A stretch of 64,000 nucleotides of DNA from a virus. Lineage: Duplodnaviria; Caudoviricetes. The translations under genes and the position numbers were made by a program. The stretch spans positions 288,001-352,000 of IMG/VR virus record IMGVR_UViG_3300014204_013734; one strand, written 5' to 3'. Shown piece after piece: positions 13,499-30,430 of this stretch. The notes beneath the pieces were generated by a model, which was not told the DNA's origin, ran no database searches, and saw only the letters and a list, made by a program, of their open reading frames with translations. Position 1 is the stretch's first letter, and the number at the start of each line of letters is the position of its first letter.

Positions 13499-13730
13499 AG
13501 TATCGTTGGAAAATGGCGGCGTCATTGTCAAGCTGCATATGGAAGAAGCCTTAAAGATTGATCAGCTCAAGGGTTTGATGGTTCGGTATGGTTGGGACGA
13601 TGGAATCAAGAAAGCGGTAGAAGTGCTTTTCGTAGACATTGAAAAACAGGTTGGCAAAGAAATCCAGGAAGCACTTCACCGAAGCGTCCTTGACGGGACG
13701 ATCTCGTTTGACAGGAAAGACATTCCATGA
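13491..13730 (+). CDS. Hypothetical protein
   Basis: Short ORF overlapping both neighbours. Confidence 0.55.
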   Translation: MSEVSLENGGVIVKLHMEEALKIDQLKGLMVRYGWDDGIKKAVEVLFVDIEKQVGKEIQEALHRSVLDGTISFDRKDIP

Positions 13731-14461
13731 ATACCATTCCTGACGAATTGAAGGATTGGTTCAAGACATTGATTTCTCCCCCGGATGCCGAAGCCTTCAT
13801 CATTTCCAATTTGGAATCTGTTGACTTAGCTTCATGGCCCGATGAAAGCCATGTCGGGCTAATCGTCAGAGGGACCCCGACCGAAGCGCAATCCAAGGAA
13901 TTGCTTAGGGTGTTGAAACCGGGCGGGCACCTGATCTTGATTGCCCCTGACACGGAACCGACCGGGCATACAGGAACTTGCCGGATTGAAGATGCAGGTT
14001 TTGAAATCAGGGATTCCGTCCTGCTGGTGGATAGCCCGGAAGGGTTCTATTATGTCCCGAAGGCATCACGGGCCGAACGGGAAGCCGGGTGTTCAAACAT
14101 AGCCCCGAAACAACGGGATGAGGCTAGGAAAGAAGGAAACCCTGGCGGGGTTCATTCGGTCAGGAACTTTCACCCCACCATAAAACCTTCTGCGCTTATG
14201 GAAAAGCTGTTGGGGGACGGGAAGAATGGTGACAGTCCCATTCTTGACCCTTTCATGGGCAGCGGGTCCACGGGTATCGCCTGTGTCAAGACTGGGCATG
14301 ATTTTGTAGGGATTGACATGGAACCGGATTACGTGGGTATTGCGACGGCCCGTATCCGATATTGGGATGGGGAAACCGGTTTGGTTGAACGGTCCGTCAC
14401 GACGGAACAGGAACCCGAACTTGAAAAAACGGATTCCTTAAATGACATTTTCGGATGGTGA
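13727..14461 (+). CDS. Amino-(N6A/N4C) DNA methyltransferase, SAM-binding (C-terminal) module; catalytic DPPY absent
   Basis: RVLKPGG, FYYVPKASRAERE, NFHPTIKP and ILDPFMGSGSTG motifs; no (D/S/N)PPY. Confidence 0.8.
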   Translation: MNTIPDELKDWFKTLISPPDAEAFIISNLESVDLASWPDESHVGLIVRGTPTEAQSKELLRVLKPGGHLILIAPDTEPTGHTGTCRIEDAGFEIRDSVLLVDSPEGFYYVPKASRAEREAGCSNIAPKQRDEARKEGNPGGVHSVRNFHPTIKPSALMEKLLGDGKNGDSPILDPFMGSGSTGIACVKTGHDFVGIDMEPDYVGIATARIRYWDGETGLVERSVTTEQEPELEKTDSLNDIFGW

Positions 14462-14477
14462 AAAAGGAGGTAACGAA

Positions 14478-15311
14478 ATGACCAACAACACCCTTGCTAA
14501 AGATGTAGCACAGCACAAACGGGCCGTGTCCGTTTTTCTGTCCTTCTTGATCGGGAATCTTGAGGATCGGGCGAAAACGCACGATGACAGTAAGCTGTCT
14601 CCAGAAGAATTCAATGTTTACGATCAGGTTGGCCCGAGTTTGAAAGCAGCAGCGTTCGGGTCGGAAGAATACAAGGCAGGTTTAGCCCAATTAGGGTCGG
14701 CTTTGGCCCATCATTACGCTACCAACCGACACCATCCGGAATACTTCAAGCCCAAGAACGGCAAACCCGGCGGTATTCCTGCCATGGATTTGGTAGATGT
14801 TACTGAAATGTTGTGCGATTGGGTCGCGTCAGCCTTGGCTAAAGGCAATGATCCGTTGAAGGGTATGACTGAGGTTCTGTTCCCAAAATATCGGGTAGAT
14901 GGGGATCTTCAGGCTATCTTGTCAAACACTGTCAAATCTTTGCTTGAAGATGTTGCGAATCAGCCGGATAAGAAAAGATCCACAACCGAGGGTCCTTGGG
15001 AAGCTGAAATGCAAGACCCCACAACGTGTGAACATCCCACATGGGAAATTTCTCCAAAGGATGATCCGACGCAGACCATATGTGTCCTGTCTTCCTGCCA
15101 GGAAGGCAATCTTGAAGCAACGGCAAAATTGATAGCCCGTGCCCCGGTTTTGGAAGCGGAAAACAAAGCTCTTCGGGAGTCTCTTCGGGAAATGGTAGAA
15201 GACTTGGAGGAATGCGGGTCCCTGCCGGGTAGTGATGGACATCCTTACTGGAGGGCCCGTGTTTTGTTATACGGTGAAGAAGGACGAGTTCCAGGTAATA
15301 AAGGGGAGTGA
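14478..15311 (+). CDS. HD-like (DUF5662-type) domain protein with C-terminal extension
   Basis: HDDSK, HHYATNRHHPE and EMLCDW motifs; GGAGG RBS. Confidence 0.75.
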   Translation: MTNNTLAKDVAQHKRAVSVFLSFLIGNLEDRAKTHDDSKLSPEEFNVYDQVGPSLKAAAFGSEEYKAGLAQLGSALAHHYATNRHHPEYFKPKNGKPGGIPAMDLVDVTEMLCDWVASALAKGNDPLKGMTEVLFPKYRVDGDLQAILSNTVKSLLEDVANQPDKKRSTTEGPWEAEMQDPTTCEHPTWEISPKDDPTQTICVLSSCQEGNLEATAKLIARAPVLEAENKALRESLREMVEDLEECGSLPGSDGHPYWRARVLLYGEEGRVPGNKGE

Positions 15312-15314
15312 ACC

Positions 15315-15974
15315 ATGGAAAGCAAATCGACGGTTCTAAGTTTAGACGATTTTCTGACCCAGCAAACAACATCCCCCGATACGAAAGCAATGGAACTTGC
15401 TTACAAGACTTCCTGCGAAGATGCCGGCCGTGCCAAACGTGATATGGCCATCAATGAAGGATGGAATACGGTGTGGGGATGTCTGTTTGAAGCATACCTG
15501 AAATTTTCTCGGTTCGTTGTTGAAAGGAGCACTCCTGTTGGAGTAACCCTCTTTGTCCACCGTCAAATGGCGGTCAGGGAAATCCCGGATATCATTGCTT
15601 ACCTAGCCAGAGCCTATTCCGACCCTTCCTGCCGGCAACAGGAAAAACCTGACAACTACGGTTTGCACAAGGCCTTGAATATGGCGACAGCCATAATCAC
15701 CAAAACATCAGCCGCGTCCCAAATGGTTGGGGATCAGTGCATTCTGCCTGGGTGGGACGAACCGGCACAAGCAGTCGTCCAAGCGTTTTCTTCTTTGCGG
15801 CAGCAGATTACGATTACAGGGGCAGGAACGGACGAAGGGTCTACCAGCGTAACCCTCAATGAAAAGTATGTCCTTGATGCCATTCCCATGATGATTGCAC
15901 GTCTTTCTCGCGCCTATGCCTTGCTTTCTAAAGCCGAAGATGTGGTGGAAACGGCTAAAACGGTAACGCCATGA
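15315..15974 (+). CDS. Hypothetical protein with internal duplication
   Basis: Two GW...IPxxIAxLxRAY units. Confidence 0.65.
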   Translation: MESKSTVLSLDDFLTQQTTSPDTKAMELAYKTSCEDAGRAKRDMAINEGWNTVWGCLFEAYLKFSRFVVERSTPVGVTLFVHRQMAVREIPDIIAYLARAYSDPSCRQQEKPDNYGLHKALNMATAIITKTSAASQMVGDQCILPGWDEPAQAVVQAFSSLRQQITITGAGTDEGSTSVTLNEKYVLDAIPMMIARLSRAYALLSKAEDVVETAKTVTP

Positions 15975-17731
15975 ATGGTGAATTTCCGTCTGTTTTTGAG
16001 CATCCTTTGAAGGTAATTCACCTGTTCGCCGGAGCTGGGGGCGGTATCCTGGGGGACTTGATCCTTGGTCACGAATGTGTTGCTGCCGTAGAGATTGAAC
16101 CCTTCTGCCAACGGGTGTTGAAGGAGCGCATTGTGGACGGGGCATTGCCGGATTTCCCCATCCACGATGATGTCAGGACGTTCCAAGGCAAACCGTGGAA
16201 GGGTAAGATTGACATGATTTCAGGGGGCTTCCCCTGCACCAATATTTCCTTGGCAGGAAAAGGGGAAGGGCTTTCGGGACCACAAAGCGGACTCTGGTTT
16301 GAATTTGCACGGATCATTTCCGAAGCGGAACCCAAGTTCGTGTGGATTGAAAACGTTCCAGCCCTTCGGGGCCGCGGATTAACCGTCGTGCTCGGAAACC
16401 TCCATGACCTGGGCTACAACGCCCGGTGGGGGGTTATGTCCGCTGCTGATGCCGGAGCTCCGCATCTTCGCAAACGTTTTTGGATACTGGCGTGGCGTCA
16501 AGGGGTCGGGAAAGTGTCCGGCGAACCTGCCGCAAAATGGGATTCAAAGGCGAAGTCATGGAGGATCATCCGATCTTTTGATGGGACATCAATCTCTTAT
16601 GGAGAAGCCTTTCCGGTTTGGGGGGTGATGCGTAACGGTGGATTATTCCATCCGCCAATTCCGGAATTCGGTGCTTTCAACGGTGTTTCCTGGCCAACCC
16701 CGAGGTCCGGTAAGGTTTCGGACGAAAACGCAGAATCCTGGATGAAACGGCATGAGGAAGGCAAGGTGTCAACCCCGCCATTGGCTTTGGCCGTGAAGAT
16801 GGCAGACGGGAAAGAACCCTTTCCAACCCCGACGAAGTCCATGGCGACCGTACAGGACATGGAACAGGCAAGGTTTGCGGGAAACGATCCGAAGCGTCCG
16901 AAATACGCGGATGCCTTGAATTCATTTCCGACCCCTAGAGCAACCGATGCCGACCGGGGCGGTAGGGGAGACTTGATCCAGGCAGTTCGGGGGAACGCCA
17001 ATTCCCATCATAGTTCGTGGCCAACCCCTCGGGCGTCCCAAGGGGGTCCTGATTTCGCCCGGGAAGACCGGCCGGAATCAGGTGGTGACGATCTGGCAAC
17101 TGCAGTAGCCCGCGAGGAATTCGGGACGCCTACCGCCAACATGAAGGAAGCATCTGATTCTGAAACATGGCCAACGCCAACGTCTCGTGATTGGCGTTCG
17201 GGAAAAGCAAGTCAGGCTACTTTAAACAAGAATAGCCGTCCCTTGAGTGAAATTGTTGAAAAGCGACTCCAGGAAGAAGCATCCGATCCTTCAAGTTGGC
17301 CAACCCCGCGGGCATGTTCCGCCATTGCGGCGACTTTGACGGAAAACAACCTAGACCCCAGATTATTTCCGAACCTGGAAACTGTGGTGACAAGGTCCGA
17401 CCCGAAAAACATGCTCGGCGGGCAACTTAACCCTGATTGGGTAGAATGGCTGATGGGTTGGCCTATTGGATGGACCAACCTGGACCCCCTGAACATGGAA
17501 TGGTTTGAAATGTGGAAAAAGGGGACAGGTCCTTGGACGCAAGGGGGTTGGTGGGACGAAGACCCGTCCAAGACCGGTTTCGCTCCCAGGGTCGCTAGGG
17601 ATGTTTCGGATCGTGTCCGACGGTTGGCGGCACTTGGCAACGGACAGGTTCCGGCGACCGTTGCCTTGGCTTGGATCACGCTTGCAACAATGCAGGAATC
17701 CACGGATTTAGACACTTTTTTCGGGTGGTAA
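15971..17731 (+). CDS. C5-cytosine DNA methyltransferase with seven (W/F)PTP-type repeats
   Basis: LFAGAGG, GGFPC, ENV, HLRKR and LGNGQV motifs; LNPDWVEWLMG. Confidence 0.9.
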   Translation: MNGEFPSVFEHPLKVIHLFAGAGGGILGDLILGHECVAAVEIEPFCQRVLKERIVDGALPDFPIHDDVRTFQGKPWKGKIDMISGGFPCTNISLAGKGEGLSGPQSGLWFEFARIISEAEPKFVWIENVPALRGRGLTVVLGNLHDLGYNARWGVMSAADAGAPHLRKRFWILAWRQGVGKVSGEPAAKWDSKAKSWRIIRSFDGTSISYGEAFPVWGVMRNGGLFHPPIPEFGAFNGVSWPTPRSGKVSDENAESWMKRHEEGKVSTPPLALAVKMADGKEPFPTPTKSMATVQDMEQARFAGNDPKRPKYADALNSFPTPRATDADRGGRGDLIQAVRGNANSHHSSWPTPRASQGGPDFAREDRPESGGDDLATAVAREEFGTPTANMKEASDSETWPTPTSRDWRSGKASQATLNKNSRPLSEIVEKRLQEEASDPSSWPTPRACSAIAATLTENNLDPRLFPNLETVVTRSDPKNMLGGQLNPDWVEWLMGWPIGWTNLDPLNMEWFEMWKKGTGPWTQGGWWDEDPSKTGFAPRVARDVSDRVRRLAALGNGQVPATVALAWITLATMQESTDLDTFFGW

Positions 17732-17734
17732 AGA

Positions 17735-18322
17735 ATGAAACAAGAAGAAATTTATAAGGCTATGCGGGCTAGGTTTGCAACGGTTCTGGACGGATTCGTC
17801 GGTCAACGTTTGGAACCCCGTACCGTGCGTCAGATCAAACAAACCCTACAGGCTACTCTTTCCAGGATGATTGACGAAGGTCTTATTAACTTCCCCGTAC
17901 CAAATTGGCAACTGCGTGTGTACGAAAATGAAGGAAGCCTGGAAATCGTTTTTGGGGATCCAGATGAAAACCTACCGAAGAAAGGAACGGAGATGTTTTT
18001 GGACGAATACCAAGACAAGGCAAAAGTCACGGCTTTTTATCCTCGCAGATGGGCTAACCTGAATTATCCGACACTTGGACTGTGCGGGGAAGCTGGGGAA
18101 TTCGCCAACAAGGTGAAGAAGATTGAACGGGATCATGGGGGTGTTCTGACCGACGCTGTTCGGCAAGCCCTCAAAGAAGAACTGGGAGACGTGCTTTGGT
18201 ACGTGGCCATGTGCGCTGATGAACTTGGGCTTACTTTGTCGGATGTAGCGGAAACCAACGTGGCCAAGTTAGCATCCCGATTGGCACGGGATCAGATCAA
18301 GGGTGAAGGGGACCAGAGATGA
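17735..18322 (+). CDS. MazG-like NTP pyrophosphohydrolase with N-terminal extra domain
   Basis: GLCGEAGE...EELGDVLWY...NVAKL. Confidence 0.85.
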   Translation: MKQEEIYKAMRARFATVLDGFVGQRLEPRTVRQIKQTLQATLSRMIDEGLINFPVPNWQLRVYENEGSLEIVFGDPDENLPKKGTEMFLDEYQDKAKVTAFYPRRWANLNYPTLGLCGEAGEFANKVKKIERDHGGVLTDAVRQALKEELGDVLWYVAMCADELGLTLSDVAETNVAKLASRLARDQIKGEGDQR

Positions 18323-18984
18323 AAAAACCTTATCAACACATTAAGGTGCAGAAATTTTTGGATGACCAAAGTCAACGCCTGGAAACGGGGGCGGTTTGTG
18401 TAAATTTGGACTGGCCAGGTTTATTTATCCGGGGGGATAGTTGTCATGGATTCCTGATGCGTATTTTGGAACATCTTCAATGTGTTCTTGAAGGAGGAAA
18501 TGCAATTATGACCTGTCAACCTTTGTTGGAACTGGTTCATTTGCTGGACTCTCCAGTGCACTACGGGCCTGAATATGGACAATACGTTTCGCGTTTTTTG
18601 GAAGAACTGGACAATCGTTTTTCAATGTCCGATGACCCTAAGAAACCCTTGTATGATCCAAAAAGGGTGTCGGAAAGGGCTTTGTCGGAATTGGAAGCTA
18701 AGTTCAGGGAAGCCCTTTCAGGTATGCTTGATAAGACCTGGAATAACGCTTCCGAAGAAGAACTGAACGACTTTCTTAAGAAAGTCGTCATTGAATTCAT
18801 TGATAAGGATTTCCTTCCTTGGTGGTCTCTTCCAACAATCAAATGGGAAGTTGTAGCTTCTGAAGGATGGTCTTCTTTGAAATTCAATTTCCGCATACCG
18901 GGGAAATCTGACAAATTCTTCATTCAACCTTTCAAAAAGGAAAAAGACGGAAATGACCACGGAAGAGTTGGGACCCCATGTTAG
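18319..18984 (+). CDS. Hypothetical protein
   Basis: ATGA-coupled ORF; DWPGLFIRGD motif. Confidence 0.6.
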   Translation: MKKPYQHIKVQKFLDDQSQRLETGAVCVNLDWPGLFIRGDSCHGFLMRILEHLQCVLEGGNAIMTCQPLLELVHLLDSPVHYGPEYGQYVSRFLEELDNRFSMSDDPKKPLYDPKRVSERALSELEAKFREALSGMLDKTWNNASEEELNDFLKKVVIEFIDKDFLPWWSLPTIKWEVVASEGWSSLKFNFRIPGKSDKFFIQPFKKEKDGNDHGRVGTPC

Positions 18985-19256
18985 AAACCGGGGCATGTTT
19001 GATTTCCAGGACCGGCATGCGGTTAACCCAGGTTCCGAAGATAGATTGCACTACTTCCATCAAAGCTGGGAAAACGATTGGACGCGTCCACGTATGGCTT
19101 CTGGAAAATGCCGTTCTGCAGGCGGAAGCTTTGAATGACGAATGGGTGTCATCCATGTTTTCAAAGTGGGAAGCAAAACGGTTGACTGATGCCGATGTGG
19201 AAACCTTAAACGATTGGTTGTTTGATCCTGAATTTGGACAAGGAAACAGGGCATGA
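18978..19256 (+). CDS. Hypothetical protein
   Basis: 92-aa ORF overlapping both neighbours. Confidence 0.55.
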   Translation: MLETGACLISRTGMRLTQVPKIDCTTSIKAGKTIGRVHVWLLENAVLQAEALNDEWVSSMFSKWEAKRLTDADVETLNDWLFDPEFGQGNRA

Positions 19257-20503
19257 CACAGAAACTCGTCCTCAGACTCGGCAATTGTGTCGAAGTTATG
19301 CGGACTTTAGAGGAGGGAAGTGTAGGGGGGGTCGTAACTGACCCCCCCTACTAGTTGAATGGGATATCGTTCATGGGTAGAAAATGGGACACCGTGGATG
19401 AAAACAATACGCCAGTTCAGGAAGATTCGTCCAATGATGTTGAGCCAGAAGGGGTGTTCCTGGAACATGTCCATGCGCAGCAGGCATGGCACCTAGCCTG
19501 GCTCAAGGAAGCGTTCCGCGTCCTGAAGCCGGGCGGGGTCATTAAAGCATTCAGTGCGACCCGAACATTCCACAGGCTTGTTGCCGCCATGCAGGAAGCT
19601 GGTTTTGTTGATGTCAGGCTTCAAGCTTGGGTCTACGGATGTCTGTCGGAAGACACTGAAATTTTGGTCCGTCAGGGTAGTAGGGAAGAATGGATCCGGT
19701 ATCCGGGAGATGAAGCTATTCAGGGTTTGGAAACGCTTTGTTTTGATATGACAACAGGTCTGCGGTGGGAACGTATCCTTGAAGGGTTTTCCTATGACTA
19801 CGACGATATTGCTTTTCATCTAAAGGGTCCCCGTACTGACCAATTGGTATCAAAGAACCATAGGTGTTTGTTGATGGGGGCCGAAGGCAAGATGCAATTT
19901 GAATTGGCGGAAAATCTTCCTTCGTCCGTGATCATTCCTATCATTCCGGATTGGGTGCAACCGGTGCAGGAAGGGGATAACATCCTGTGGGGTGTAGCGG
20001 ACGTGAAACCCGTGTATTATACGGGTACCGTCTGGTGCGTGAAAGTTCCTACGGGGGCGTTCGTAGCCCGTAGGAATGGGAAAATCTTCATCACCGGGAA
20101 CAGTGGGTTTCCAAAATCATTAAGCATTTCTAAGGCTTTGGACAAGAAACAAGACAATGATCTTAAACGGGAAGTACGAAGAGCCGCAGTAGCAGCAGTT
20201 CAAGAAGCCGGGTTGTTTCTGCCGTCCAATTCTTTGTGGGATTGGACGGTTGGCGAACATGGTCCTGGGGATACATGGTGGAAAAAGTTTCAAGAAACAC
20301 TCCCAGGGCTTACGGACGAAAACAGAGAAAAGATTGAAGGTGCTATTGTGGCTACGGTTCAGAAAACAGCGGGTTGGTTTACTAGGAAGGATATTTACGA
20401 AGTACGGGCCCCTGCTTCTGCGAATTCTAAAAAGTGGTCCAAATACGGAACGGCCGTGAAACCGGCTTGGGAATCCATCGTCGTTGGGAGGAAACCGGAA
20501 TGA
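19253..20503 (+). CDS. Amino-MTase catalytic (N-terminal) module with in-frame TAG at 19352-19354 and a mini-intein
   Basis: ATG 19253 (ATGA overlap) reads GNCVEVM...VTDPPY*LNGISFMGRKWD; RVLKPGG; WVYG|SGFPKS; ends KPAWESIVVGRKPE with no FxGxG motif. Confidence 0.8.
19640..20101 (+). mobile_element. Mini-intein (154 aa, no endonuclease)
   Basis: CLSEDTEIL start, SKNHR block B, VWCVKVPTGAFVARRNG...TGN|S end. Confidence 0.88.
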
Positions 20504-20889
20504 GCAAGTCCATGACCGAAACTGAAATTTGCCGCAAGATTGCTCTTTATGACCCTGAAATCAATCTTCCAGTACGGTGTCTTGAGTTGAATCTCAGCGT
20601 CTTGGCAAATGCCTTTTGGCGGATAGAATGCTACAACAACGCTGTCGTGGCAATAAGTGCTTGCCATGATACAATGGTTTTGCTCCGTGAACTGCTTTCC
20701 GATGATTTCCTGGAAAGGTCTCCCGAAGGGGTTGATCTGCTTTGGGGGGCTTCTTTGGTGGAATGTACGACCATTCCCGAAGGCCAAATCTGGATGATCG
20801 GGGATCAGGAATCCCCTGCGGCTGTTACCTTCATCCAATTCAGTAATCCGAGGGAAGAAACTCTCGGGCTGTCGTATTCATTGAACTGA
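20500..20889 (+). CDS. Hypothetical protein
   Basis: ATGA-coupled ORF. Confidence 0.55.
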   Translation: MSKSMTETEICRKIALYDPEINLPVRCLELNLSVLANAFWRIECYNNAVVAISACHDTMVLLRELLSDDFLERSPEGVDLLWGASLVECTTIPEGQIWMIGDQESPAAVTFIQFSNPREETLGLSYSLN

Positions 20890-20911
20890 ACGGGGAAGAA
20901 ACCTTCTGACC

Positions 20912-21421
20912 ATGATCCTCGCCATCACAGGACACCGACCCCAAAAATTGGGCGGATACAAGGACAACCCAACCCGGAAAATCGTGCAGGCGGCGATGTC
21001 CCAGGCGTTCCTTGACCTGAAACCCGAAAAGATCATTACAGGCATGGCCCTTGGGGTTGACCAGTGGGCGGCGGCTTTGGCCGTCAGACACGGCATTCCG
21101 TTCATTGCGGCCATCCCCTGTCTTGAACAGGAAACGGTTTGGAATTCCGATGTCCAAGACCGTTATTGGCAAATCCTCAAGCTTGCTTCCGAAGTAGTAG
21201 TTGTGACCCAAACGCCATACAATCCGACTGTCATGGCTAAACGAAATCTTTGGATGCTTGATCGGGCTGATGCCGTATTGGCTATTTGGGACGGCAGCAG
21301 AGGCGGGACAGGTCATTGTGTTGCCGAAGCATTGAAGCGAAACATCCCTGTGCATCGTATTCTTCCCGAAACAGGGGAACGAATCATAATGCTTGTCGGA
21401 AAACCCGTTCCGAGGAATTAG
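20912..21421 (+). CDS. SLOG-superfamily (YspA/DUF1273-like) protein
   Basis: AITGHRP, GMALGVDQW, RNLWM and WDGSRGGT motifs. Confidence 0.88.
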   Translation: MILAITGHRPQKLGGYKDNPTRKIVQAAMSQAFLDLKPEKIITGMALGVDQWAAALAVRHGIPFIAAIPCLEQETVWNSDVQDRYWQILKLASEVVVVTQTPYNPTVMAKRNLWMLDRADAVLAIWDGSRGGTGHCVAEALKRNIPVHRILPETGERIIMLVGKPVPRN

Positions 21422-21424
21422 GTG

Positions 21425-22609
21425 ATGGGAAAATACACGGTCCGACGAAGATGTGGCCATGAAGAAGAATTGAACCTGTATGGGCATATAGAAGAACGGG
21501 ACCGTCGTCGTGACTACGAAACAGGGCTGTTGTGCGCCCAGTGTTACAAACTGAAACTGGAAGAAGACCGTCGTAAAGCCAGCGAAGCAGCGGCGTTGGA
21601 GGGCAAGGAAAAGGGTTTGCCGGACCTTGTCGGCACCGAAAAACAGATTGCCTGGGCATTACGTATCCGTCGTTCTGTTTGTGAAGACCTTGCTAGTGCG
21701 GAATCCTGGGTTTTGGGTGAACGTGAAAAAAGGAGTCTGTCGGAAGAAGATACCTGCCTTCGGTTAAAGGAACTGTCCAACATTCGCGAACAGAATTCCG
21801 CTTCCTGGTGGATAAATGAATTCAAGGAACTTGATCTATTGTCCTGGCACGCAATGCGAAATTATCTGAAAGACCGATTTGAAAAGACACAACATGACCA
21901 AGAACTGAAAATGCTTCATGAATCTGAAGAGTCTATTCGTGAAGATCAGGATTTGCTTCGGCCTTCCAGCCCAGTCACCAACGCGGTAGTGGAAATCACG
22001 TCTTCAAATGACACTATTTGCCTACGACTGCCCGAATTCAACGATACGTTCATAACCGTAACTAAGAAGCTTCATTTCGGATGGGATAAAATGAAGTTTT
22101 TTTGGAAACGAACGCTTGATGAACGTTCCCTTCCTATGCAAGACCGCGTAGCTGAAACGGGGGCCGTTTTGTTGGCTTCTGGTTTCATGATCCGTGTTGA
22201 CCGCAGTGTGGTTCCTTTGATTGTTTCCGGAAATTATGAACGTGAAACGACGAAATGGGTGACGAAAGGAGGTCGGAATTTCCGTATTACTTGGAGGGAA
22301 GACGACGGAAATTTCAACACCTTATTGAATCAAATCAGGGGCTACAAACAAAACCGTAAGTTTGCGTGTTGCGTTCACATTCCGTCAAATCAGTGGGAAC
22401 TTGTGCTGGATTTTGCCGAACAACACGGATTCAAAATTGGGGAGGAAGCAAAGAAATTTGCCGAAAGAATTGCGCATGATTTCAAATCTTCCCTGGTTGT
22501 GGACATCAAATTGAATGAAAAAATTGTTGTCGGTCCGGTCGGGGGCCCGCCTAAAGCGTTGATCGTTCCAGAAACGGTAGACGTGGACGATGAATTTAAG
22601 GACAACTAG
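21425..22609 (+). CDS. Hypothetical phage protein (CGH...CAQC; GTEKQIAWA motif)
   Basis: 394-aa ORF directly upstream of the second SNF2 helicase. Confidence 0.7.
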   Translation: MGKYTVRRRCGHEEELNLYGHIEERDRRRDYETGLLCAQCYKLKLEEDRRKASEAAALEGKEKGLPDLVGTEKQIAWALRIRRSVCEDLASAESWVLGEREKRSLSEEDTCLRLKELSNIREQNSASWWINEFKELDLLSWHAMRNYLKDRFEKTQHDQELKMLHESEESIREDQDLLRPSSPVTNAVVEITSSNDTICLRLPEFNDTFITVTKKLHFGWDKMKFFWKRTLDERSLPMQDRVAETGAVLLASGFMIRVDRSVVPLIVSGNYERETTKWVTKGGRNFRITWREDDGNFNTLLNQIRGYKQNRKFACCVHIPSNQWELVLDFAEQHGFKIGEEAKKFAERIAHDFKSSLVVDIKLNEKIVVGPVGGPPKALIVPETVDVDDEFKDN

Positions 22610-24005
22610 TCAACTTCTTCCCCACCAAAAGGAAGCAGTAGCGAAGCTTTCCGGGACACGCATCGGTGCCCTTTTCATGGAAATGGGCACTGGGAAAACA
22701 AGGACCACCATAGAACTGGTTTCCTTGCGGCAAGAACGGATTGATCGTTGCGTTTGGTTCTGCCCTGTTTCCTTGAAAACCACAATTGCCGCTGAAATAC
22801 GGAAACACACCAACGCGGTAGATTCCGACATTCACGTTTTTGACCATCGAACATCTAAGCGGGATATGCCCGATGCGCAATGGTACGTGATCGGCATTGA
22901 AAGCATGAGCAAGTCGATGCGTATTATTTTCGCCGCAAGTGCCCTCATCACTGAAAAAACTTTTGTTGTGGTTGATGAATCCAGTTACATCAAAGGATAC
23001 AGTTCTTTGAGAACGCGGAGGTTAACTGCTCTTGCTGAACAAGCTCAGTACAGATTGATTCTTACGGGAACTCCAATCAGCCAGGGTGTCGTCGACCTAT
23101 TTGCACAGATGCGGTTTCTTTCACCTAAAATCCTTGGCTATCGCAGTTTCTTTAGTTTCGCTGCCAACCATCTTGAATATTCAAAAAAGTATCCAGGCAT
23201 GATCGTGCGCAGCCACAACCTTGACTACCTTGCTGCCAAGATCAAACCGTACGTTTATCAGGTGACGAAGAAGGAATGCCTCACGTTGCCGCCGAAATTG
23301 CACGAATCCTATTACTTCGATATGACCGGGCGGCAAACGGAAGCCTATGACCGAGCCAAATGTGAATTACTGATGGATATCCCTGATGAAGAAGTTACGT
23401 CATGGGTGATTTTCAAGTTGTTTTCGGCTTTGCAGTCCATCACATGTGGGTTTTGGAATCGTCGTACCCCTGAGGGCATTGTTGAAGAACGTTATCCCCA
23501 TGGAAGAATCAAACTTCTTATGGACGTAGTCAATAGGATTCCGAAAGACGAAAAGGTCATCGTTTGGGCCAAGTATCATTATGATATTGAAGGGATTGTT
23601 TTGGATTTGGAAAACCGATGGGGACCGGGATCTTGTGCGGTTTACACGGGCAAGAAGTCCGAACGGGAACGGGTAGAGGAAATTTCTAAATTCAGGAATG
23701 ATGCCCGCTTTTTCGTTGCTACGCCATCGGCCGGAGGGCATGGGTTGACCTTGAACGAAGCTCACCATGTCGTCTTTTACAACAATGGATTCAAGTTTTC
23801 GGAACGTCTCCAGGCCGAAGACCGCTGTCATCGTATCGGGCAGGGATGTCCGGTTACGTATGTGGATATTCTGTGTTCAGGATCAATAGACGAACGCATC
23901 AAAGAAGCCTTGGACGCAAAAGAAAACGTGGTTGACAGATTCAAAAGGGAATTGGATATGGTCAAGCGTTCGGGTATACGTAAAAGGTTGCTGGAAATTC
24001 TCTGA
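22590..24005 (+). CDS. SNF2-family helicase (second copy)
   Basis: MEMGTGKT, DESS, LTGTP, GLTL and QAEDRCHRIGQ motifs. Confidence 0.92.
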   Translation: MNLRTTSQLLPHQKEAVAKLSGTRIGALFMEMGTGKTRTTIELVSLRQERIDRCVWFCPVSLKTTIAAEIRKHTNAVDSDIHVFDHRTSKRDMPDAQWYVIGIESMSKSMRIIFAASALITEKTFVVVDESSYIKGYSSLRTRRLTALAEQAQYRLILTGTPISQGVVDLFAQMRFLSPKILGYRSFFSFAANHLEYSKKYPGMIVRSHNLDYLAAKIKPYVYQVTKKECLTLPPKLHESYYFDMTGRQTEAYDRAKCELLMDIPDEEVTSWVIFKLFSALQSITCGFWNRRTPEGIVEERYPHGRIKLLMDVVNRIPKDEKVIVWAKYHYDIEGIVLDLENRWGPGSCAVYTGKKSERERVEEISKFRNDARFFVATPSAGGHGLTLNEAHHVVFYNNGFKFSERLQAEDRCHRIGQGCPVTYVDILCSGSIDERIKEALDAKENVVDRFKRELDMVKRSGIRKRLLEIL

Positions 24006-24018
24006 ATCGGAAAAGGAT

Positions 24019-24681
24019 GTGGCATTGGGCAAAATTTTCCTTTACGGGGACAGTTGGGAACGGTATCCGATTACGGAAGGGGCAGAATGGACGGACCCCG
24101 GCACCGGATCCGTGGTTGCCGTGTCTGACATCCGCAATCCCCTGCCGAAGTTTATGGTTGGGGCGGAAATGGTCTATTCCGACCCTCCCTGGGACCTGAA
24201 CAACATCAATGCCTTCCTTACGAAAGCGGGAAGGGCTGATTACGTTGACAGATTTCCTTCCTTCTTGGACGTTTTCTTCAACCGACTCAGGGAAATTCAC
24301 CCGAAGGTGTGTTACCTTGAAATGGGGGTAAAAAACGCAGCTTTGGTCAGGGAACATTTGAAACAGGATTTTGCTTCCGTTCAGGAATGGCCCATTCTGT
24401 ATTACCGCAAGCATCCGTGCTTCCTGTTCAGGGGAGGACCGACACCGGTAGAAATGGACTTTTCCGGCCTGGACGACTCGGAAACCCCGTTCACGGCGAT
24501 CATTTCCGAATGTCCGGTATCGGTAGCCGACTTGTGCACCGGAAGGGGTCTGACAGCCGTAGCAGCATTCAAGGCGAACGTTAGGTTCTTCGGCACTGAA
24601 ATCAACCGGCGCCGTTTGGCCGTGGCCTTGGACAGGGTGAATAGGATAGGGGGGGCCTATGCGCCGCGTCCAATTCCTTAA
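24019..24681 (+). CDS. Small amino-methyltransferase-like protein
   Basis: YSDPPW catalytic-like motif and DLCTGRG SAM-binding motif; start is GTG 24019 or TTG 24025. Confidence 0.7.
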   Translation: MALGKIFLYGDSWERYPITEGAEWTDPGTGSVVAVSDIRNPLPKFMVGAEMVYSDPPWDLNNINAFLTKAGRADYVDRFPSFLDVFFNRLREIHPKVCYLEMGVKNAALVREHLKQDFASVQEWPILYYRKHPCFLFRGGPTPVEMDFSGLDDSETPFTAIISECPVSVADLCTGRGLTAVAAFKANVRFFGTEINRRRLAVALDRVNRIGGAYAPRPIP

Positions 24682-25435
24682 AGACACCGCAAAAGCCATT
24701 CTTCCCGAACTCCCTTCTGGAACCTTGGTCCTGCACAGAAAGGGGTTTGATTACGGGATTCCTGAAATCCCTGGTGCGGAATACATGGATTTCCTTGAAT
24801 ACAAAACCAAATATCCGGCTCTGAATCCCCCGGCTATCGTCATGGTCGGACTCAACCGCATTATTACACCCGGCAACCGCTGCGATATGGTCAACGAATA
24901 CCTACAGACCATGACGCCGAACCTGCCTAAGATATGCCTTGACACAGCCCCGTTCCTTGGGGAACCTTGGCGTCTGTGGTTCCATTATTCCGTTGCCGGA
25001 TCCGGGCGTTTCGGTATCTCTTACAGCTATGCTTTAGAAACGGAATGGGAACATTGGTTCCATAGGGACGTGCCGGACTGCCGGTTGTCGGCTTCCAACA
25101 TCAGGATGCTTCTGACCGATACGGTTTCGGATTTGGATCTTCTGAAAACGACGTTCCACTTCATAGAACCATCTCCCGACGAAGAGGATTGGTACAATGA
25201 AGTGAAGAAGCAGGCGTTTGAACGGCACAGCACTCCGAAGATGCTGGTCAACACGCTCCTGGCGGCCGTTAACCGTCGCTTCGGACTGAAAGTGTCATAC
25301 GACAGCTACCTGGAAAACAAGGAAGTCGAGCTCCTGGATTTGGGTGTGTATCGTTTTGTGGCGGAAGAGGCTGTCCGGAGGATGGACATATACAACGAGG
25401 TCGTCCGTCATGGGCACGAAAACCTACCTGGATAA
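24659..25435 (+). CDS. Hypothetical protein in the IbrAB-like cassette
   Basis: 258-aa ORF overlapping both neighbours. Confidence 0.65.
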   Translation: MRRVQFLKDTAKAILPELPSGTLVLHRKGFDYGIPEIPGAEYMDFLEYKTKYPALNPPAIVMVGLNRIITPGNRCDMVNEYLQTMTPNLPKICLDTAPFLGEPWRLWFHYSVAGSGRFGISYSYALETEWEHWFHRDVPDCRLSASNIRMLLTDTVSDLDLLKTTFHFIEPSPDEEDWYNEVKKQAFERHSTPKMLVNTLLAAVNRRFGLKVSYDSYLENKEVELLDLGVYRFVAEEAVRRMDIYNEVVRHGHENLPG

Positions 25436-26489
25436 AAATGTGCTTGATGCTGCTCGCGAACGAATCGCGATGCTGTTTGATAACTTTGAAGCAATCAATG
25501 TTTCAATTTCCAGCGGTAAGGATTCCTGTGTCCTTTACACGTTGTGCGTGCAGGAAGCCGTTCGCCGGGGGCGTAAGATCACGGCGTTTTTCCTGGATCA
25601 GGAAGCGGAATATGAAGCCACTGTAGACGTGATGCAACGCATGATGCAGCATCCGAATATCATTCCCCAGTGGTATCAAGTTCCCATCTACATGACCAAT
25701 GCTACCAGCTACAGCGATTATTTCCTTTACGCTTGGGGGCCCGGTGAGAAATGGATGCGCGAAAAGGATCCGATGGCCATCCATTCCATTGACGAGGAAT
25801 ACGAAAAACGGTTCTACGGATTCCTTGACTGGTACGAAAAAAGAAATACTAATGCCGCCTATCTGGTTGGGTTGCGTGCCGATGAATCCGTCACGCGTTA
25901 CCGGGCGGTGACCAAATATCCCGGCTGGAACGGGATACGTTGGGGCACGATGAACGGGGAAGTCAAACGCTTTTATCCGATCTATGATTGGACGGTTTAC
26001 GATGTCTGGCATTTCATCTACGAATTTGATGTCCCTTACAACAAGATTTACGATTTGATGTTCATGGATGGCCAAAGCATTTACAAAGGCATGCGGGTGT
26101 CAAACCTCGTGCATGAAAAAAGCTTTCACTGTTTGGTGGATCTTCCTCGGTACGAACCGGAAACTTACGATAAGCTCTGCCGCCGTATCGGGGGGATAGC
26201 TACCGCAGCCCGTTATGCGGCTGAAAAAACCGTGTTCAACAACGGCACCTTGCCTAGCCATTACAAGTCGTGGTTGGAGTTTCGGGATTTCCTGTTGGCA
26301 AACATCCCTGAAGAAGAACACAGGGAACGGTTCGCTGCCCGTTTTGCAAAGCAGGATGCGAACGAAAAGATGTATCAGGGCCAAGTCGGTCAACTGCTCA
26401 TCAATGATTACGAAAACAGCCGTCCGTTTGACACCAAAGTTGCCGAGCGAGTTCGGAGATTGAAGGAAAAATGGAATCAACTCTTGTGA
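25410..26489 (+). CDS. PAPS-reductase-like PP-loop protein (IbrA/YbdN type)
   Basis: NVLDAARERI, SSGKDS, FLDQEA, GLRADES and YPIYDW motifs. Confidence 0.85.
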   Translation: MGTKTYLDKNVLDAARERIAMLFDNFEAINVSISSGKDSCVLYTLCVQEAVRRGRKITAFFLDQEAEYEATVDVMQRMMQHPNIIPQWYQVPIYMTNATSYSDYFLYAWGPGEKWMREKDPMAIHSIDEEYEKRFYGFLDWYEKRNTNAAYLVGLRADESVTRYRAVTKYPGWNGIRWGTMNGEVKRFYPIYDWTVYDVWHFIYEFDVPYNKIYDLMFMDGQSIYKGMRVSNLVHEKSFHCLVDLPRYEPETYDKLCRRIGGIATAARYAAEKTVFNNGTLPSHYKSWLEFRDFLLANIPEEEHRERFAARFAKQDANEKMYQGQVGQLLINDYENSRPFDTKVAERVRRLKEKWNQLL

Positions 26490-26986
26490 GCGAAAAGTTC
26501 GCGGACACGGATTCAATCGTCATTTGGCAGACAAGACTTGTGAAGATGGAAGACCTTGTCGCCAACGACTACAATCCGAACCGGATGCCAACCACAGAGA
26601 TGAAACTCCTGGAAATGTGCATCCGTAAGTTTGGGTTTCTCTTTCCGTTGATTGTATGCCCGGATCAGGGGAAGTACAGAATTGTGGACGGCTATCACAG
26701 GTACGAAGTGCTGAAACGCATGGCCGTCAAAGTGGTGTCCGCAGTGGTGTTGGACATCCCCTACCACGAAGCAGTGCAGCTTACCGTGCTGATGAACCGC
26801 ATCAAGGGCATGCACCAGGTGGAAGGCATGGCGGATTTGATCGTCAAGCTTGAAGATTTGGGCGTTGCCGATCAGGAAATCTGTGTGAATCTCGGCATGG
26901 AGGTTGAAGAATACCTCCGATTGAAGCAGCAACTTGGTATCGCCCATGCCTTTAGGGATCACCAGTATTCAAAATCGTGGGAATGA
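26471..26986 (+). CDS. ParB/sulfiredoxin-like protein (IbrB/YbdM type)
   Basis: ANDYNPN, IVDGYHR and NRIKGMH motifs. Confidence 0.85.
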   Translation: MESTLVSEKFADTDSIVIWQTRLVKMEDLVANDYNPNRMPTTEMKLLEMCIRKFGFLFPLIVCPDQGKYRIVDGYHRYEVLKRMAVKVVSAVVLDIPYHEAVQLTVLMNRIKGMHQVEGMADLIVKLEDLGVADQEICVNLGMEVEEYLRLKQQLGIAHAFRDHQYSKSWE

Positions 26987-27504
26987 ATATGCTTGTTGCT
27001 ACCATTGCCAGGAAACCGATTAGTATGACCGTCGTCGACAACGTGTTGGTACACGGGGTCGGTGGGTTCAACATAGACGATTGCCGGATAACCCCGACCG
27101 GGGAACGTCTAGGCGGCGGGGATGAATCGGCAGAATCCATTGACGGAAAGTGGTCTGGTTGGAGCCGTCCTTGGATGCACGATCCTGCCAAGGTGTTCAA
27201 GGTAGCATCGGAAGTACGAGACAAGGTTGAAAAAGCCACGACCTTGGGACGTTGGCCCGCTAATGTCATCTTGATTCATTTACCAGAGTGCCGTGAACAG
27301 GGAAATGGGACCGTGTGGGAATGTGCTGAAGGGTGTCCGGTCGCCTACTTGAATCAGACTGTCGGGATCACCAAAAGTGGGAGCATTGATTCATGGAGGG
27401 AAGGGGTGCCTGGTCCTGTGTATGGCCATCCTTCGGCCCGTCAAGTCACATTCCAAGGAGATGCCGGGTTTGTGTCCCGGTTTTTCAAGCAGGTCAAACG
27501 ATGA
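26983..27504 (+). CDS. Stand-alone middle module 1 of an amino-MTase
   Basis: ARKP...NVLVHGVGGFNIDDCRI...GRWPANV...SRFFKQV. Confidence 0.75.
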   Translation: MNMLVATIARKPISMTVVDNVLVHGVGGFNIDDCRITPTGERLGGGDESAESIDGKWSGWSRPWMHDPAKVFKVASEVRDKVEKATTLGRWPANVILIHLPECREQGNGTVWECAEGCPVAYLNQTVGITKSGSIDSWREGVPGPVYGHPSARQVTFQGDAGFVSRFFKQVKR

Positions 27505-27989
27505 TCGTCGCTACGCTGGCCAGAAAGCCTTTGCGGGGAACCATCCTTGACAACATTATGTTATATGGGGTCGGGGCTTTGAACATCAACGATTGCAGGA
27601 TAGGTACAGACCCGATTGTCGTCCAGGGGGGCGGTGGCGCCGCTTGGGATACTGATGGGAACAAAGTCGGACGCCCGATGGGGGAGATCAATGAAGCACG
27701 TATCGGAAGGTTTCCCGCCAATCTTGTCCTTGTTCACCAAGAAGGGTGCACACGTGCCGGAATTGCGAAGGTGAAAGGAAGTGGCCATTGGATTTCAGCC
27801 GGAGATTCAAAGGGTGTAGTGTGGGGGAAAGGGTTCCATCAGGAACAATCCGATTTCGGGAATGTTCTTGCTGATTCCGAAGGGTTGGAAACTGTTGATG
27901 TATGGGTTTGCACCGTTGGATGTCCCGTTCCTGAAATGGATCAACAAAGTGGGGTTTCTCGTTTTTTCAAGCAGGTGAAGGGGGATTGA
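27501..27989 (+). CDS. Stand-alone middle module 2 of an amino-MTase (paralogue)
   Basis: ARKPLRGT...GVGALNINDCRI...GRFPANL...SRFFKQV. Confidence 0.75.
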   Translation: MIVATLARKPLRGTILDNIMLYGVGALNINDCRIGTDPIVVQGGGGAAWDTDGNKVGRPMGEINEARIGRFPANLVLVHQEGCTRAGIAKVKGSGHWISAGDSKGVVWGKGFHQEQSDFGNVLADSEGLETVDVWVCTVGCPVPEMDQQSGVSRFFKQVKGD

Positions 27990-28780
27990 TGATGGAACGG
28001 AAACTTGGCGGATTCAGACCGGAACCTTTAGACCCGAAACATTGGACGTTTTCCGACAAGTTGAAGCCCCGCTTGTGCGCATTGAGGGAAGATGACGTGG
28101 ACCTTCGTCCCTTCTCTTCCCCCCGACACGACCAACAATGGACGAATTCCTGTGTAGCCAATGCAGTCATTAAAGCATTGGAAATCAAACGGATCATGAA
28201 GTTCGGGCATGCAGCGCATGTCGACCTGTCCCGCCTCGCTGTTTACTTCCTTGCTCGGGAACTGATGTTCCCCCAGGAAACGTCACAGGATGCTGGAACT
28301 TACGTATCCCTTGCGTGTGATGTCCTGCGGCGGTGGGGCGTTTGCACCGAAGAAGCTTGGCCATTTGACCTTAATAAGGTGTTCTCACCTCCCCCTTGGG
28401 GAGCCATGCGACAGGCACATGTCAACCGGATTGCAGCGTTCTACAGGCTTGATTCAGGTGTTTCCAGGGCTCGTCTGGTGGAAGATGTCATCCGTTGCCT
28501 TCGGGCGGGTAACCCCGTCGTTTACGGGACTGCAATTGGCCAGAACTGGTTTGATTACAAACCGGACCAAGTGTTGACGACCCCCAAGGACATGAAAGAT
28601 ATGGTAGGTCGGCATGCTACTGTTCTGGTCGGGTTTGCAAATGGCAGGTTCATCGGAGAAAACAGTTGGGGACCGAATTGGGGTTCCAATGGGTTCTACT
28701 GGATGGATCCTGGGTATATAACCTGGAAGGAATCCTGCGATTTTTGGACAATCACGGCCCCTTGGCAGGAGGTCAAATGA
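27989..28780 (+). CDS. Papain-like C1 cysteine peptidase
   Basis: DQxxTNSCVANA, GRHATVLVG and ENSWG motifs. Confidence 0.88.
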   Translation: MMERKLGGFRPEPLDPKHWTFSDKLKPRLCALREDDVDLRPFSSPRHDQQWTNSCVANAVIKALEIKRIMKFGHAAHVDLSRLAVYFLARELMFPQETSQDAGTYVSLACDVLRRWGVCTEEAWPFDLNKVFSPPPWGAMRQAHVNRIAAFYRLDSGVSRARLVEDVIRCLRAGNPVVYGTAIGQNWFDYKPDQVLTTPKDMKDMVGRHATVLVGFANGRFIGENSWGPNWGSNGFYWMDPGYITWKESCDFWTITAPWQEVK

Positions 28781-29052: not shown

Positions 29053-29435
29053 ACTTCGGAAAATTCCAAATCGAACCAGAAAGTATCCTCGGAGAGGACA
29101 ACCTGTTTGCGGTCATCCTAGATGATTATCCTGTCTCCCCAGGCCATTCTCTCGTGGTTGTCAAAAGGGAAGGGGCGGCAGCCCTTTCAAATTTGTCTGA
29201 GGAAGAATTCTCGCGTTTGTGGCATTGGGTTCGGTGGTGCGAGGACCATTTGGAACGAACGTTGCAACCGAAACCAGATGGATTCAACATCGGTTTGAAC
29301 GACGGACCTGCCGCCGGACAGACTGTTCCGCAACTTCACGTCCACGTTATTCCCAGGTACGTTGGTGATGTTGCCGATCCCCGTGGGGGTGTCCGGTTTG
29401 TGATTCCTGACAAAGCAAGGTATTGTAAAAAATGA
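29049..29435 (+). CDS. HIT-family nucleotide hydrolase
   Basis: PVSPGH and AGQTVPQLHVHVIPR motifs. Confidence 0.9.
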   Translation: MNFGKFQIEPESILGEDNLFAVILDDYPVSPGHSLVVVKREGAAALSNLSEEEFSRLWHWVRWCEDHLERTLQPKPDGFNIGLNDGPAAGQTVPQLHVHVIPRYVGDVADPRGGVRFVIPDKARYCKK

Positions 29436-30430
29436 AACTACTTCTGACCGAAGATCAAATTAGGACCCGGCAGGCGTACCCTCTTGACCTGAAAATCCAG
29501 ATCAGCTTGAAGCGGATTGAAGATTGGCGGGAACATCACGGGGGCCTAATTTCCGTGTCGTATTCGGGCGGTAAGGATTCAGCGGTCTTGCTTCATTTGG
29601 TCAGGTCCCTTTATCCCGACACCCCTGCGGTATTTTGTGACACCGGATTGGAATATCCTGAAATCCGGCATTTTGCTATGGACACCCCCGGAGTTGTAGT
29701 CCTCCGTCCAAAAATGAACTTTCATGAAGTAGTAGAGAAGCACGGTTGGCCTATCGTTTCAAAGAGGGTGGTGCAATACATATATGAAGCCGGGACATAT
29801 CAGGAAGGTTCTAAGACCTGGATTCGCCGTATGACTGGAACATCTTCGTCTGGAAAAACAACCGCTTTGGGAAAGATCCCGAATAAGTGGATGTATTTGG
29901 TTCCTCTTGTCCGATCCGGGGTTTTGAAAGTGAACTACCGTTGTTGCCACATTATGAAAAGAGGCCCCATTCAAAAATATGTCAAAGAAACTGGACGGTT
30001 CCCTTATGTCGGAACGACGGCAGCAGAAAGCAAGGACAGGGAATTGTCTTGGAAGATATTCGGATGCAACGCCTATGACAGCAAGAATCCTACATCAAGA
30101 CCCCTGATGGCGTGGACGGAACAGGACATTCTTCAATACATCAAACGGGAAGGATTGAAGATTGCTTCGGTTTACGGGGATATCGTAGAAGATGATGAAG
30201 GAAACCTTTCATTGACTGGTGCAAAACGAACCGGTTGCATGTTCTGCATGTTTGGCGTTCACCTGGAACATAGCCCCAACAGATTTGAACGGATGAAGAA
30301 AACACACCCCAAGCAGTGGGACCACATTACGCGTTACATGGGCGGCGGCAAAGTTCTTGATATTCTCGGGGTTCCTTGGGGCGACCCGGACAAACCAACC
30401 TTGTTTGATATCCTCGGAGTAGAGGACTGA
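29432..30430 (+). CDS. PAPS-reductase-family protein (phage type, Cys cluster)
   Basis: SYSGGKDS, DTGLEYPE, CC and RTGCMFC motifs. Confidence 0.88.
   Translation: MKLLLTEDQIRTRQAYPLDLKIQISLKRIEDWREHHGGLISVSYSGGKDSAVLLHLVRSLYPDTPAVFCDTGLEYPEIRHFAMDTPGVVVLRPKMNFHEVVEKHGWPIVSKRVVQYIYEAGTYQEGSKTWIRRMTGTSSSGKTTALGKIPNKWMYLVPLVRSGVLKVNYRCCHIMKRGPIQKYVKETGRFPYVGTTAAESKDRELSWKIFGCNAYDSKNPTSRPLMAWTEQDILQYIKREGLKIASVYGDIVEDDEGNLSLTGAKRTGCMFCMFGVHLEHSPNRFERMKKTHPKQWDHITRYMGGGKVLDILGVPWGDPDKPTLFDILGVED

Follow-up and report, generated by a model that had tools for sequence, protein, structure and literature searches.

The beta-class N6/N4 DNA methyltransferases of phages (PF01555, phrog_67), such as Dorothy gp75 and Akhila gp67 (Gosselin et al. 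2023, PMC9957025), are one-chain proteins in which the conserved motifs follow one another in the order DPPY, RVLKPGG, W-YGSGFPKS, KPAxEPxxxARKP, NIDxCR, GRWPAN, SRFF, YxxKAxxxER, HxTxKP and DPFxGSG. Members of this methylase family carry an intein at one conserved site, and this intein spreads between distant phages (PMC9957025). Here we describe four genes in a 64,000-nucleotide stretch of a tailed phage genome (hereafter the window; bases 288001-352000 of the 381-kb virus record IMGVR_UViG_3300014204_013734) that have the same motif order and the same intein site as the one-chain enzymes; the chain, however, is divided among separate genes by breaks at ARKP and after SRFFKQV, a second half that lacks DPPY has been added to the cofactor-binding piece, and the middle module is present in two copies, both of them free proteins. 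The same genes are found on a 444-kb contig of an independent European Nucleotide Archive (ENA) assembly. Comparison of sequences and structure modeling make it fairly probable that the four products are subunits of a single beta-class DNA amino-methyltransferase that assembles in trans, and such a multi-subunit enzyme would probably be able to mark more than one DNA motif.

Type I restriction-modification methyltransferases (HsdM2 HsdS1) consist of HsdM, which contains a complete gamma-class catalytic domain, and HsdS, which contains two recognition domains and a coiled coil. The phage genes resemble this system in that recognition would reside on a separate, exchangeable subunit, with variable regions set in a conserved frame, but differ in that the catalytic domain itself is split and each module contains a single variable core. 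In the multispecific C5-cytosine methyltransferases of the Bacillus phages SPR, phi3T and rho11s, one core carries several recognition domains in cis and several motifs are protected. The closest parallel to these enzymes is found among one-chain relatives of the window proteins that contain two to four tandem modules (L009 and L011; L-numbers denote the related phage loci and sequences that were compared with the window), whereas the enzyme predicted here is an amino-methyltransferase with modules in trans. The C5 enzymes M.AquI and M.EcoHK31I, in which the catalytic domain is formed by two separately translated polypeptides, have no spare recognition modules; the predicted phage enzyme shares with them a catalytic domain built from separate polypeptides but would be an amino-methyltransferase endowed with such modules.

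Four gene products tiling a one-chain methyltransferase

Mycobacterium phage Akhila gp67, a single chain of 893 amino acids (aa), was used as the archetype in a tblastn search of the whole 381-kb record. Residues 10-666 of this protein align to 19262-20497, within the gene for the catalytic half (N piece, 19253-20503); residues 662-794 align to 27004-27498 and residues 662-749 to 27516-27785, within two middle modules (A, 26983-27504, and B, 27501-27989); and residues 783-878 and 212-255 align to 14081-14356 and 13892-14029, respectively, both within the cofactor-binding piece (C piece, 13727-14461). All four pieces are encoded on the plus strand, where the original prediction, made from the sequence alone, had placed them, and its assertion that they cover the archetype nearly end to end is confirmed by these alignments. 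Searches of the record that included more sensitive queries detected no further N, middle or C piece. The motif order IV, middle, X, I is regained only by tiling three gene products on Akhila gp67, the motifs being distributed over three kinds of polypeptide (encoded at 13727, 19253 and 26983/27501) rather than located on one. Against the PF01555 gathering cut-off of 26.7 bits, the C piece scores 67.4 (residues 134-206) and the N piece 18.8, below the threshold, whereas the middle modules have no match. The starts of the genes at 13727, 19253, 26983, 27501 and 27986 overlap the upstream stop codons (ATGA or TTGA), in agreement with the predicted translational coupling of the pieces, but the accompanying claim that each piece is an open reading frame (ORF) fails for 19253-20503, which contains an in-frame TAG. 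Split inteins or introns joining the pieces were considered and rejected because neither the ARKP nor the SRFF junction has intein-like ends and because the genes (C, N, middle) are arranged in another order than the protein segments.

The N piece provides the catalytic motif IV, (D/N/S)PP(Y/F/W), as DPPY at 19340-19351. Its first 33 codons (19253-19351) end with this motif and match the first 47 residues of the L014 N protein across the stop. The remainder consists of an N-extein part (19361-19639; GISFMGRKWD ... RVLKPGG ... WVYG), which covers positions 34-114 of the N-piece profile, and a C-extein (20102-20503; SGFPKS ... KPAWESIVVGRKPE, then stop), which covers positions 115-200 and has an end point that is conserved in the stand-alone N family. 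A search with the N piece of a relative yielded 418 stand-alone N halves. Among the best 120 of these, 109 have DPPY near the start and nearly all terminate at KPAWEPxxVGRKP plus zero to four residues; the window protein likewise has VVGRKPE at its C-terminal end.

The C piece (244 aa) matches two separate regions of Akhila gp67, residues 212-255 and 783-878. It begins with a degenerate half (LIVRGTP, RVLKPGG, IEDAGFEIRD), followed by FYYVPKASRAEREAGC, NFHPTIKP and motif I, DPFMGSGST; in the tiled order, motif I (FxGxG) is located on the C-terminal side of motif IV and is separated from it by the recognition region. As predicted, this piece lacks DPPY and contains HPTIKP and DPFMGSG, but it is more than the C-terminal third of the archetype as it also holds a second, DPPY-less copy of the catalytic half, in which LIVRGTP replaces DPPY. 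The C-piece family is conserved and has thousands of relatives, with free members of about 250 aa; the best 120 relatives include about 70 free proteins and 25 fusions of a middle module with C. Motif I and NFHPTVKP are nearly invariant across the family, and none of about 95 members contains a (D/N/S)PP(Y/F/W) motif, GxIVxGTPTEEQ being found in its place. The ratio of nonsynonymous to synonymous divergence (dN and dS) could be estimated only for the C piece, N and the modules being without a close relative: in the comparison with its closest relative, to which it is 66% identical, dN amounts to 0.28 and dS, at about 2.4, has reached saturation. This relative occupies the same DnaB-C-DUF5662 setting with no N gene adjacent, so the scattered layout is common to at least one relative. 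Single-protein searches of IMG/VR with the C piece and with module A gave distant matches only.

Module A, which resembles a target-recognition domain, contains LVATIARKP, GGFNIDDCRI, GRWPAN and the pattern H-x3-C ... WECAEGCPV, and ends with SRFFKQVKR and a stop; its true start may be the ATG at 26989. The corresponding elements of module B are IVATLARKP, GALNINDCRI, GRFPAN, CTVGCPV and SRFFKQVKGD, then a stop. The two modules are about 30-35% identical and, as had been noted from the sequence, share the frame and differ in the variable cores, which are unrelated. The same fixed frame (ARKP, NIDxxRI, GRWPAN, SRFFKQVK then stop) surrounds hypervariable cores throughout the family, and free modules start with M-x2-ITLARKP and end with GGASRFFKQVK and a stop. 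The cores often contain an H-x3-C ... C-x3-C pattern and probably bind zinc. The middle-module profile detected 12,610 cluster representatives at E<=1e-10. The best 150 of these comprise 66 free proteins (at most 260 aa) and 84 longer chains, nearly all of which contain one to four modules, with every combination of DPPY and motif I; one-chain relatives with two to four tandem modules are L009, L011 and L008. The profile has no sequence match in the PDB and no match in Pfam or NCBIfam. The first strand of every module, xxATxARKP, repeats the last strand of N, and the C piece is without this strand; given this repeat, it is plausible that a module docks on C by strand insertion.

Twelve distinct kits of such pieces have enough flanking sequence for comparison (L014, L016, L020, L100, L101, L105-L109, L116 and the window). 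An N piece is located near C in all 12, and one to seven middle modules are present in all but L101. In L014 (331-kb contig), adjacent, overlapping genes are arranged in the order middle, C, N, with more modules after them, whereas in L016 (536 kb) an N gene and five additional modules come after a gene for a middle+C fusion; L020 contains a single C piece together with six N pieces and six modules, and L100, L105-L109 and L116 represent further mixes of pieces. The breakpoints proposed in the original prediction are conserved in many uncultured phages, and the refuting outcome named with it, unconserved breakpoints and neutrally evolving fragments, is disfavored: the N ends, the C family and the module frames are conserved, and in the C piece dN is far below dS. 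Likewise, the large families with fixed ends, the co-occurrence of the pieces and their fusions argue, as that prediction did, against simple decay. The variation from one to seven free modules per kit fits swappable specificity, in which modules would serve in recognition and be exchanged.

The assembly was modeled with the L016 pair, the middle+C protein P0032 and the N protein P0123, each with its alignment, in three runs and with three controls. The interaction prediction score from aligned errors (ipSAE) was 0.72 in 3 of 3 runs and 0.00 in the best control, with a partner predicted local distance difference test (pLDDT) value of 67 and contact agreement of at least 73%; 58 of 80 solved complexes reached that mark, as did 2 of 110 mismatched pairs. 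The predicted contacts are tightest between C residues 346-349, in the motif I strand, and N residues 11-14, in the strand before DPPY. In the model, beta4 of N is placed against beta1 of C, the normal neighbor pairing of the fold, and, in the DPPY-less half of C, the helix that follows beta5 (residues 241-250) touches the matching helix of N (78-83). If the window proteins pack as this relative's do, the active site would be built from two chains. In the AlphaFold2 (AF2) model of the middle+C protein (pLDDT 80), residues 157-262 and 268-407 match methyltransferase folds separately and never as one domain (VIA-align), and Foldseek returned poor whole-chain superpositions only (template modeling score 0.13-0.17); the separate matches fit a cofactor-binding half left open for N. 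The multimer modeling suggested with the original prediction hence favors binding of N to middle+C, and the hetero-oligomeric enzyme that it proposed is supported, short of proof, by the conserved cut points, the fusions and this complex.

Dimerization is obligatory for beta-class enzymes, the catalytic domain of each subunit being faced by the recognition domain of its partner (PMC7544214), and by analogy with this architecture the DPPY-less half of C, along with the module, may be a remnant of a second, recognizing protomer. The asymmetric beta-class dimers EcoP15I Mod2, CcrM, METTL3-METTL14 and the ciliate MTA1-MTA9 with p1 and p2 (Woodcock et al. 2020, PMC7544214) similarly pair a catalytic unit with a dead or recognition unit. 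Their partners are whole methyltransferase folds, however, whereas the dead unit in the window would amount to only half a domain, joined to that half of the active unit which binds the cofactor.

Under the mechanism that we propose, N would contribute motif IV and strands beta4 to beta7, and C would supply motif I and the HPTxKP segment, which form the S-adenosylmethionine (SAM) pocket, in addition to its degenerate second half-domain. With beta4 of N beside beta1 of C, the degenerate half of C would pack on the other side of N, and a module would occupy the position of the target-recognition domain of the one-chain enzymes. Modules A and B would then give rise to two holoenzymes with different target motifs, protecting the phage DNA from host restriction. 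To yield a whole N protein, the TAG would have to be passed, most likely by a 9-nucleotide ribosome hop, and a 154-aa intein would then have to be lost by protein splicing.

Interruptions in the N gene

A hairpin with 12 G+C-rich base pairs (19322-19351), the 3' arm of which is formed by the Pro-Pro-Tyr codons, extends precisely to the final sense codon ahead of the TAG. The TAG and the next six nucleotides (TAGTTGAAT, 19352-19360) are an insert of nine nucleotides relative to the homologues and constitute a candidate coding gap. In the homologues, exactly three residues separate the Y of DPPY from the F of FMG (alignment A3); the window reads DPPY-TAG-TTG-AAT-GGG-ATA-TCG-TTC, and dropping the nine nucleotides gives DPPYGISF, which restores Y-x3-F. 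The N genes of L100, L101, L107 and L108 are interrupted at the same profile position, 34/35, and in all three relatives in which the gap was read, matching codons are found on both sides: CTT-TGA-GGA-CTT in L100, GAG-TGA-CTT-GAG in L107 and GGC-TGAATAT-GGC in L101, the last a 10-nucleotide step with a frame change. The predicted hairpin has a folding z-score of -4.16 in the window, where 0 of 200 shuffled sequences were as stable, and of -3.97 and -4.08 in L100 and L101, ending at the Tyr codon in all three interrupted genes; the uninterrupted N genes of L014 and L016 are without it (z-scores of +1.05 and +0.32). The sequence is identical in three metagenome runs, including landfill (2018) and groundwater (2022) samples, and a microbial-mat contig that is about 3.5% diverged spans the site, with no change at the TAG listed for it. 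An apparent joint between 14005 and 20102 in run X3 comes from a low-depth contig of another organism's homologue and was rejected as a rearrangement. No RNA data set is listed as containing this part of the genome.

Judged by these sequence features, a 9-nucleotide ribosome hop over the gap is plausible, if less convincing here than in the relatives; other possibilities are inactivation, readthrough at the TAG, or termination with translation restarting at the adjacent TTG. The phage uses the standard genetic code, with TAG, TGA and TAA each terminating long ORFs and a high coding density, and its record contains two clusters with a total of 35 tRNAs (G000, 49211-86477, outside the window), none of which has a CUA, UCA or UUA anticodon. 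Stop-codon reassignment was rejected given that TAG terminates 51 of 426 long ORFs at this coding density and is read by 0 of the 35 tRNAs. A hop from TAC to the next TAT (19365) was also rejected as the frame entered does not match the homologues. The bypass in phage T4 gene 60 and short stop-hops resemble the window in that a stop directly follows the take-off codon, RNA structure flanks the gap and the protein register is regained when the gap is skipped. The differences from gene 60 are the length of the gap, 9 rather than 50 nucleotides, and the mismatch between the take-off and landing codons (TAC and AAT) in the window.

The second interruption is a 154-aa mini-intein without an endonuclease domain (19640-20101; CLSEDTEIL ... 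KIFITGN then S), inserted between profile positions 114 and 115, where it separates WVYG from SGFPKS exactly, at the same site as the Akhila gp67 insertion. The splice residues Cys1, Asn154 and Ser+1 are present, along with a block-B-like SKNH. The last 29 aa are 90% identical to the Akhila insertion (E 7e-16), and the N-terminal block also matches (E 9e-4); there is no PDB sequence match to the intein. Insertions at position 114/115 are also found in the N pieces of two other huge-phage kits, L105 (6157-8076) and L107 (12581-14029), the latter with a stop-led gap after DPPY and, accordingly, the same pair of interruptions as the window. In addition, the profile match is interrupted in the C pieces of L100 (3906-5858), L108 (9986-11830), L109 (9386-11944) and L116 (8328-10238), where insertions of some 300-390 residues are located between profile positions of about 130 and 170; these insertions may be inteins at a second conserved site.

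Weighing the explanations

Several observations weigh against assembly of a working enzyme in this phage. The pieces are 5 to 13 kb apart in the window rather than side by side. The TAG at 19352-19354 directly follows DPPY and precludes a single ORF at 19253-20503; no phage tRNA reads it, and the codons flanking the gap (TAC, then TAGTTG, then AAT) mismatch, unlike those in L100, L101 and L107. The intein lacks the penultimate His, ending in Gly-Asn, and has no match to any Pfam intein model at E<=1. As for the structures, the model of module B in isolation is poor (pLDDT 59), the pair that was folded belongs to L016 rather than to the window, and the result for this pair may owe something to the memory of the model for solved one-chain beta-class structures. 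The in-frame TAG, the missing suppressor tRNA, the mismatch of landing and take-off codons and the scatter of the pieces could all mean that the kit is broken in this phage, with N killed by the TAG while C and the modules persist in another role or on the way to loss. We consider this improbable because the frame stays open for 382 codons downstream of the TAG, through an intein that keeps its splice residues; the break is at the profile position that is interrupted in L100, L101, L107 and L108, with a strong hairpin common to the window, L100 and L101; and landfill and groundwater samples collected years apart share an identical sequence, with no change of the TAG listed for the contig that is about 3.5% diverged. 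Fragmented genes are common in large phage genomes, and the N piece falls below the Pfam cut-off, so one might also see in the pieces unrelated, non-interacting leftovers of decayed methyltransferase genes; such an origin is very improbable, as the family of each piece is large, conserved and fixed in its ends, many genomes contain the pieces together or fused, and the dN and dS values of the C piece also speak against it. Hardly credible is the idea that the C piece is complete and active as a methyltransferase by itself, independently of the other pieces. This piece does have a full-looking set of strands and motif I and passes the Pfam cut-off, but its family consistently has GTPTEEQ where the (D/N/S)PP(Y/F/W) motif is expected, and the halves of the AF2 model form no single canonical domain.

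The role of the modules is a separate matter. The enzyme could be truly split while A and B are not alternative specificity subunits, acting together instead (for example, one per pseudo-protomer) or having structural or regulatory functions. Several modules can coexist in one molecule, as shown by the tandem arrangements in L009, L011 and L008 and, more generally, by the long representatives with two to four GRWPxN modules. Still, the number of free modules per kit varies from one to seven against one C, and hypervariable cores in a fixed frame are the pattern expected of exchangeable recognition parts; this explanation appears unlikely. The trans-assembled amino-methyltransferase is the interpretation that we prefer. 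In its most specific form, a composite N + C core is re-aimed by the plug-in recognition subunits A and B, a few small genes protect a huge genome at several motifs, and the catalytic half is gated twice, by the hop over the 9-nucleotide gap and by splicing. We put this form forward tentatively, as a proposition that falls just short of an even call; it would have no described counterpart, and literature searches found no description of a split or multi-subunit phage amino-methyltransferase or of bypassing in methylase genes.

Genomic setting and implications

The region between 10.5 and 30 kb of the window is a single plus-strand block of DNA replication and modification genes that includes, in addition to the C piece, the N piece and the two middle modules, genes for DnaB with an intein, a DUF5662 protein, a C5 methylase, MazG, a YpsA-like protein, an SNF2 helicase, a DPPW protein, a 3'-phosphoadenosine 5'-phosphosulfate (PAPS) reductase, a ParB-like protein and a papain-like protease. 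The ParB_N-domain gene (26471-26986, plus strand; PF02195, 37.2 bits) overlaps the start of module A and is considered here as a neighbor only; one-chain ParB-methylase fusions are present in L012 and L013. This gene is itself overlapped by a PAPS-reductase/DUF3440 gene (the two spanning 25344-26986, just upstream of the middle modules), and a second PAPS-reductase-like gene is located 2.5 kb downstream (29432-30430); the proximity of these PAPS-reductase and ParB genes to the methylase parts is compatible with a possible DNA-modification module. The gene for a papain-family cysteine protease (27986-28780; PF00112, E 4e-8) overlaps the stop codon of module B. The DnaB-type helicase gene (10529-13498) contains a large intein at about 12011-13264 (CLLYNT ... 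SHN then C), and on the ENA contig the DnaB gene matches the Pfam families Intein_splicing and LAGLIDADG_3.

Other methylases are encoded in the window as well. In the C5-cytosine methyltransferase (15971-17731), the PF00145 match is limited to the first 193 residues, and the 390-aa tail contains many short (W/F)PTP(R/T) repeats, an unusual, repeat-built C-terminal region. The 249-aa protein encoded at 23932-24681 has no Pfam match but contains SDPPW and a C-terminal, motif I-like CTGRGLTAV, and from these motifs may be a small divergent amino-methyltransferase. The region 42880-45146 encodes a complete one-chain beta-class methyltransferase (SPPY, 400 aa; PF01555, 98 bits) directly followed by a C5 methyltransferase, indicating that the phage also has other, ordinary methylases.

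Phage methyltransferases are annotated as single genes, and pieces of the kind described here are left unannotated or labeled as partial, at the risk of being called pseudogenes; with families as large as that of the modules and their 12,610 cluster representatives, the effect on annotation would be broad. The window contains a scattered minimal kit, with one C, one N and two modules; the catalytic half of this kit is interrupted by a stop-led gap as well as by an intein. The N gene also lends itself, in compact form, to testing short ribosome hops and the spread of inteins between distant phages. If the proposed assembly is correct, three gene products can together make up a DNA methyltransferase with a Rossmann fold, and nature provides in these kits a means of exchanging DNA specificity while the catalytic core stays fixed. 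The kits would also explain how the DNA of huge phages could be protected from many restriction systems at little coding cost.

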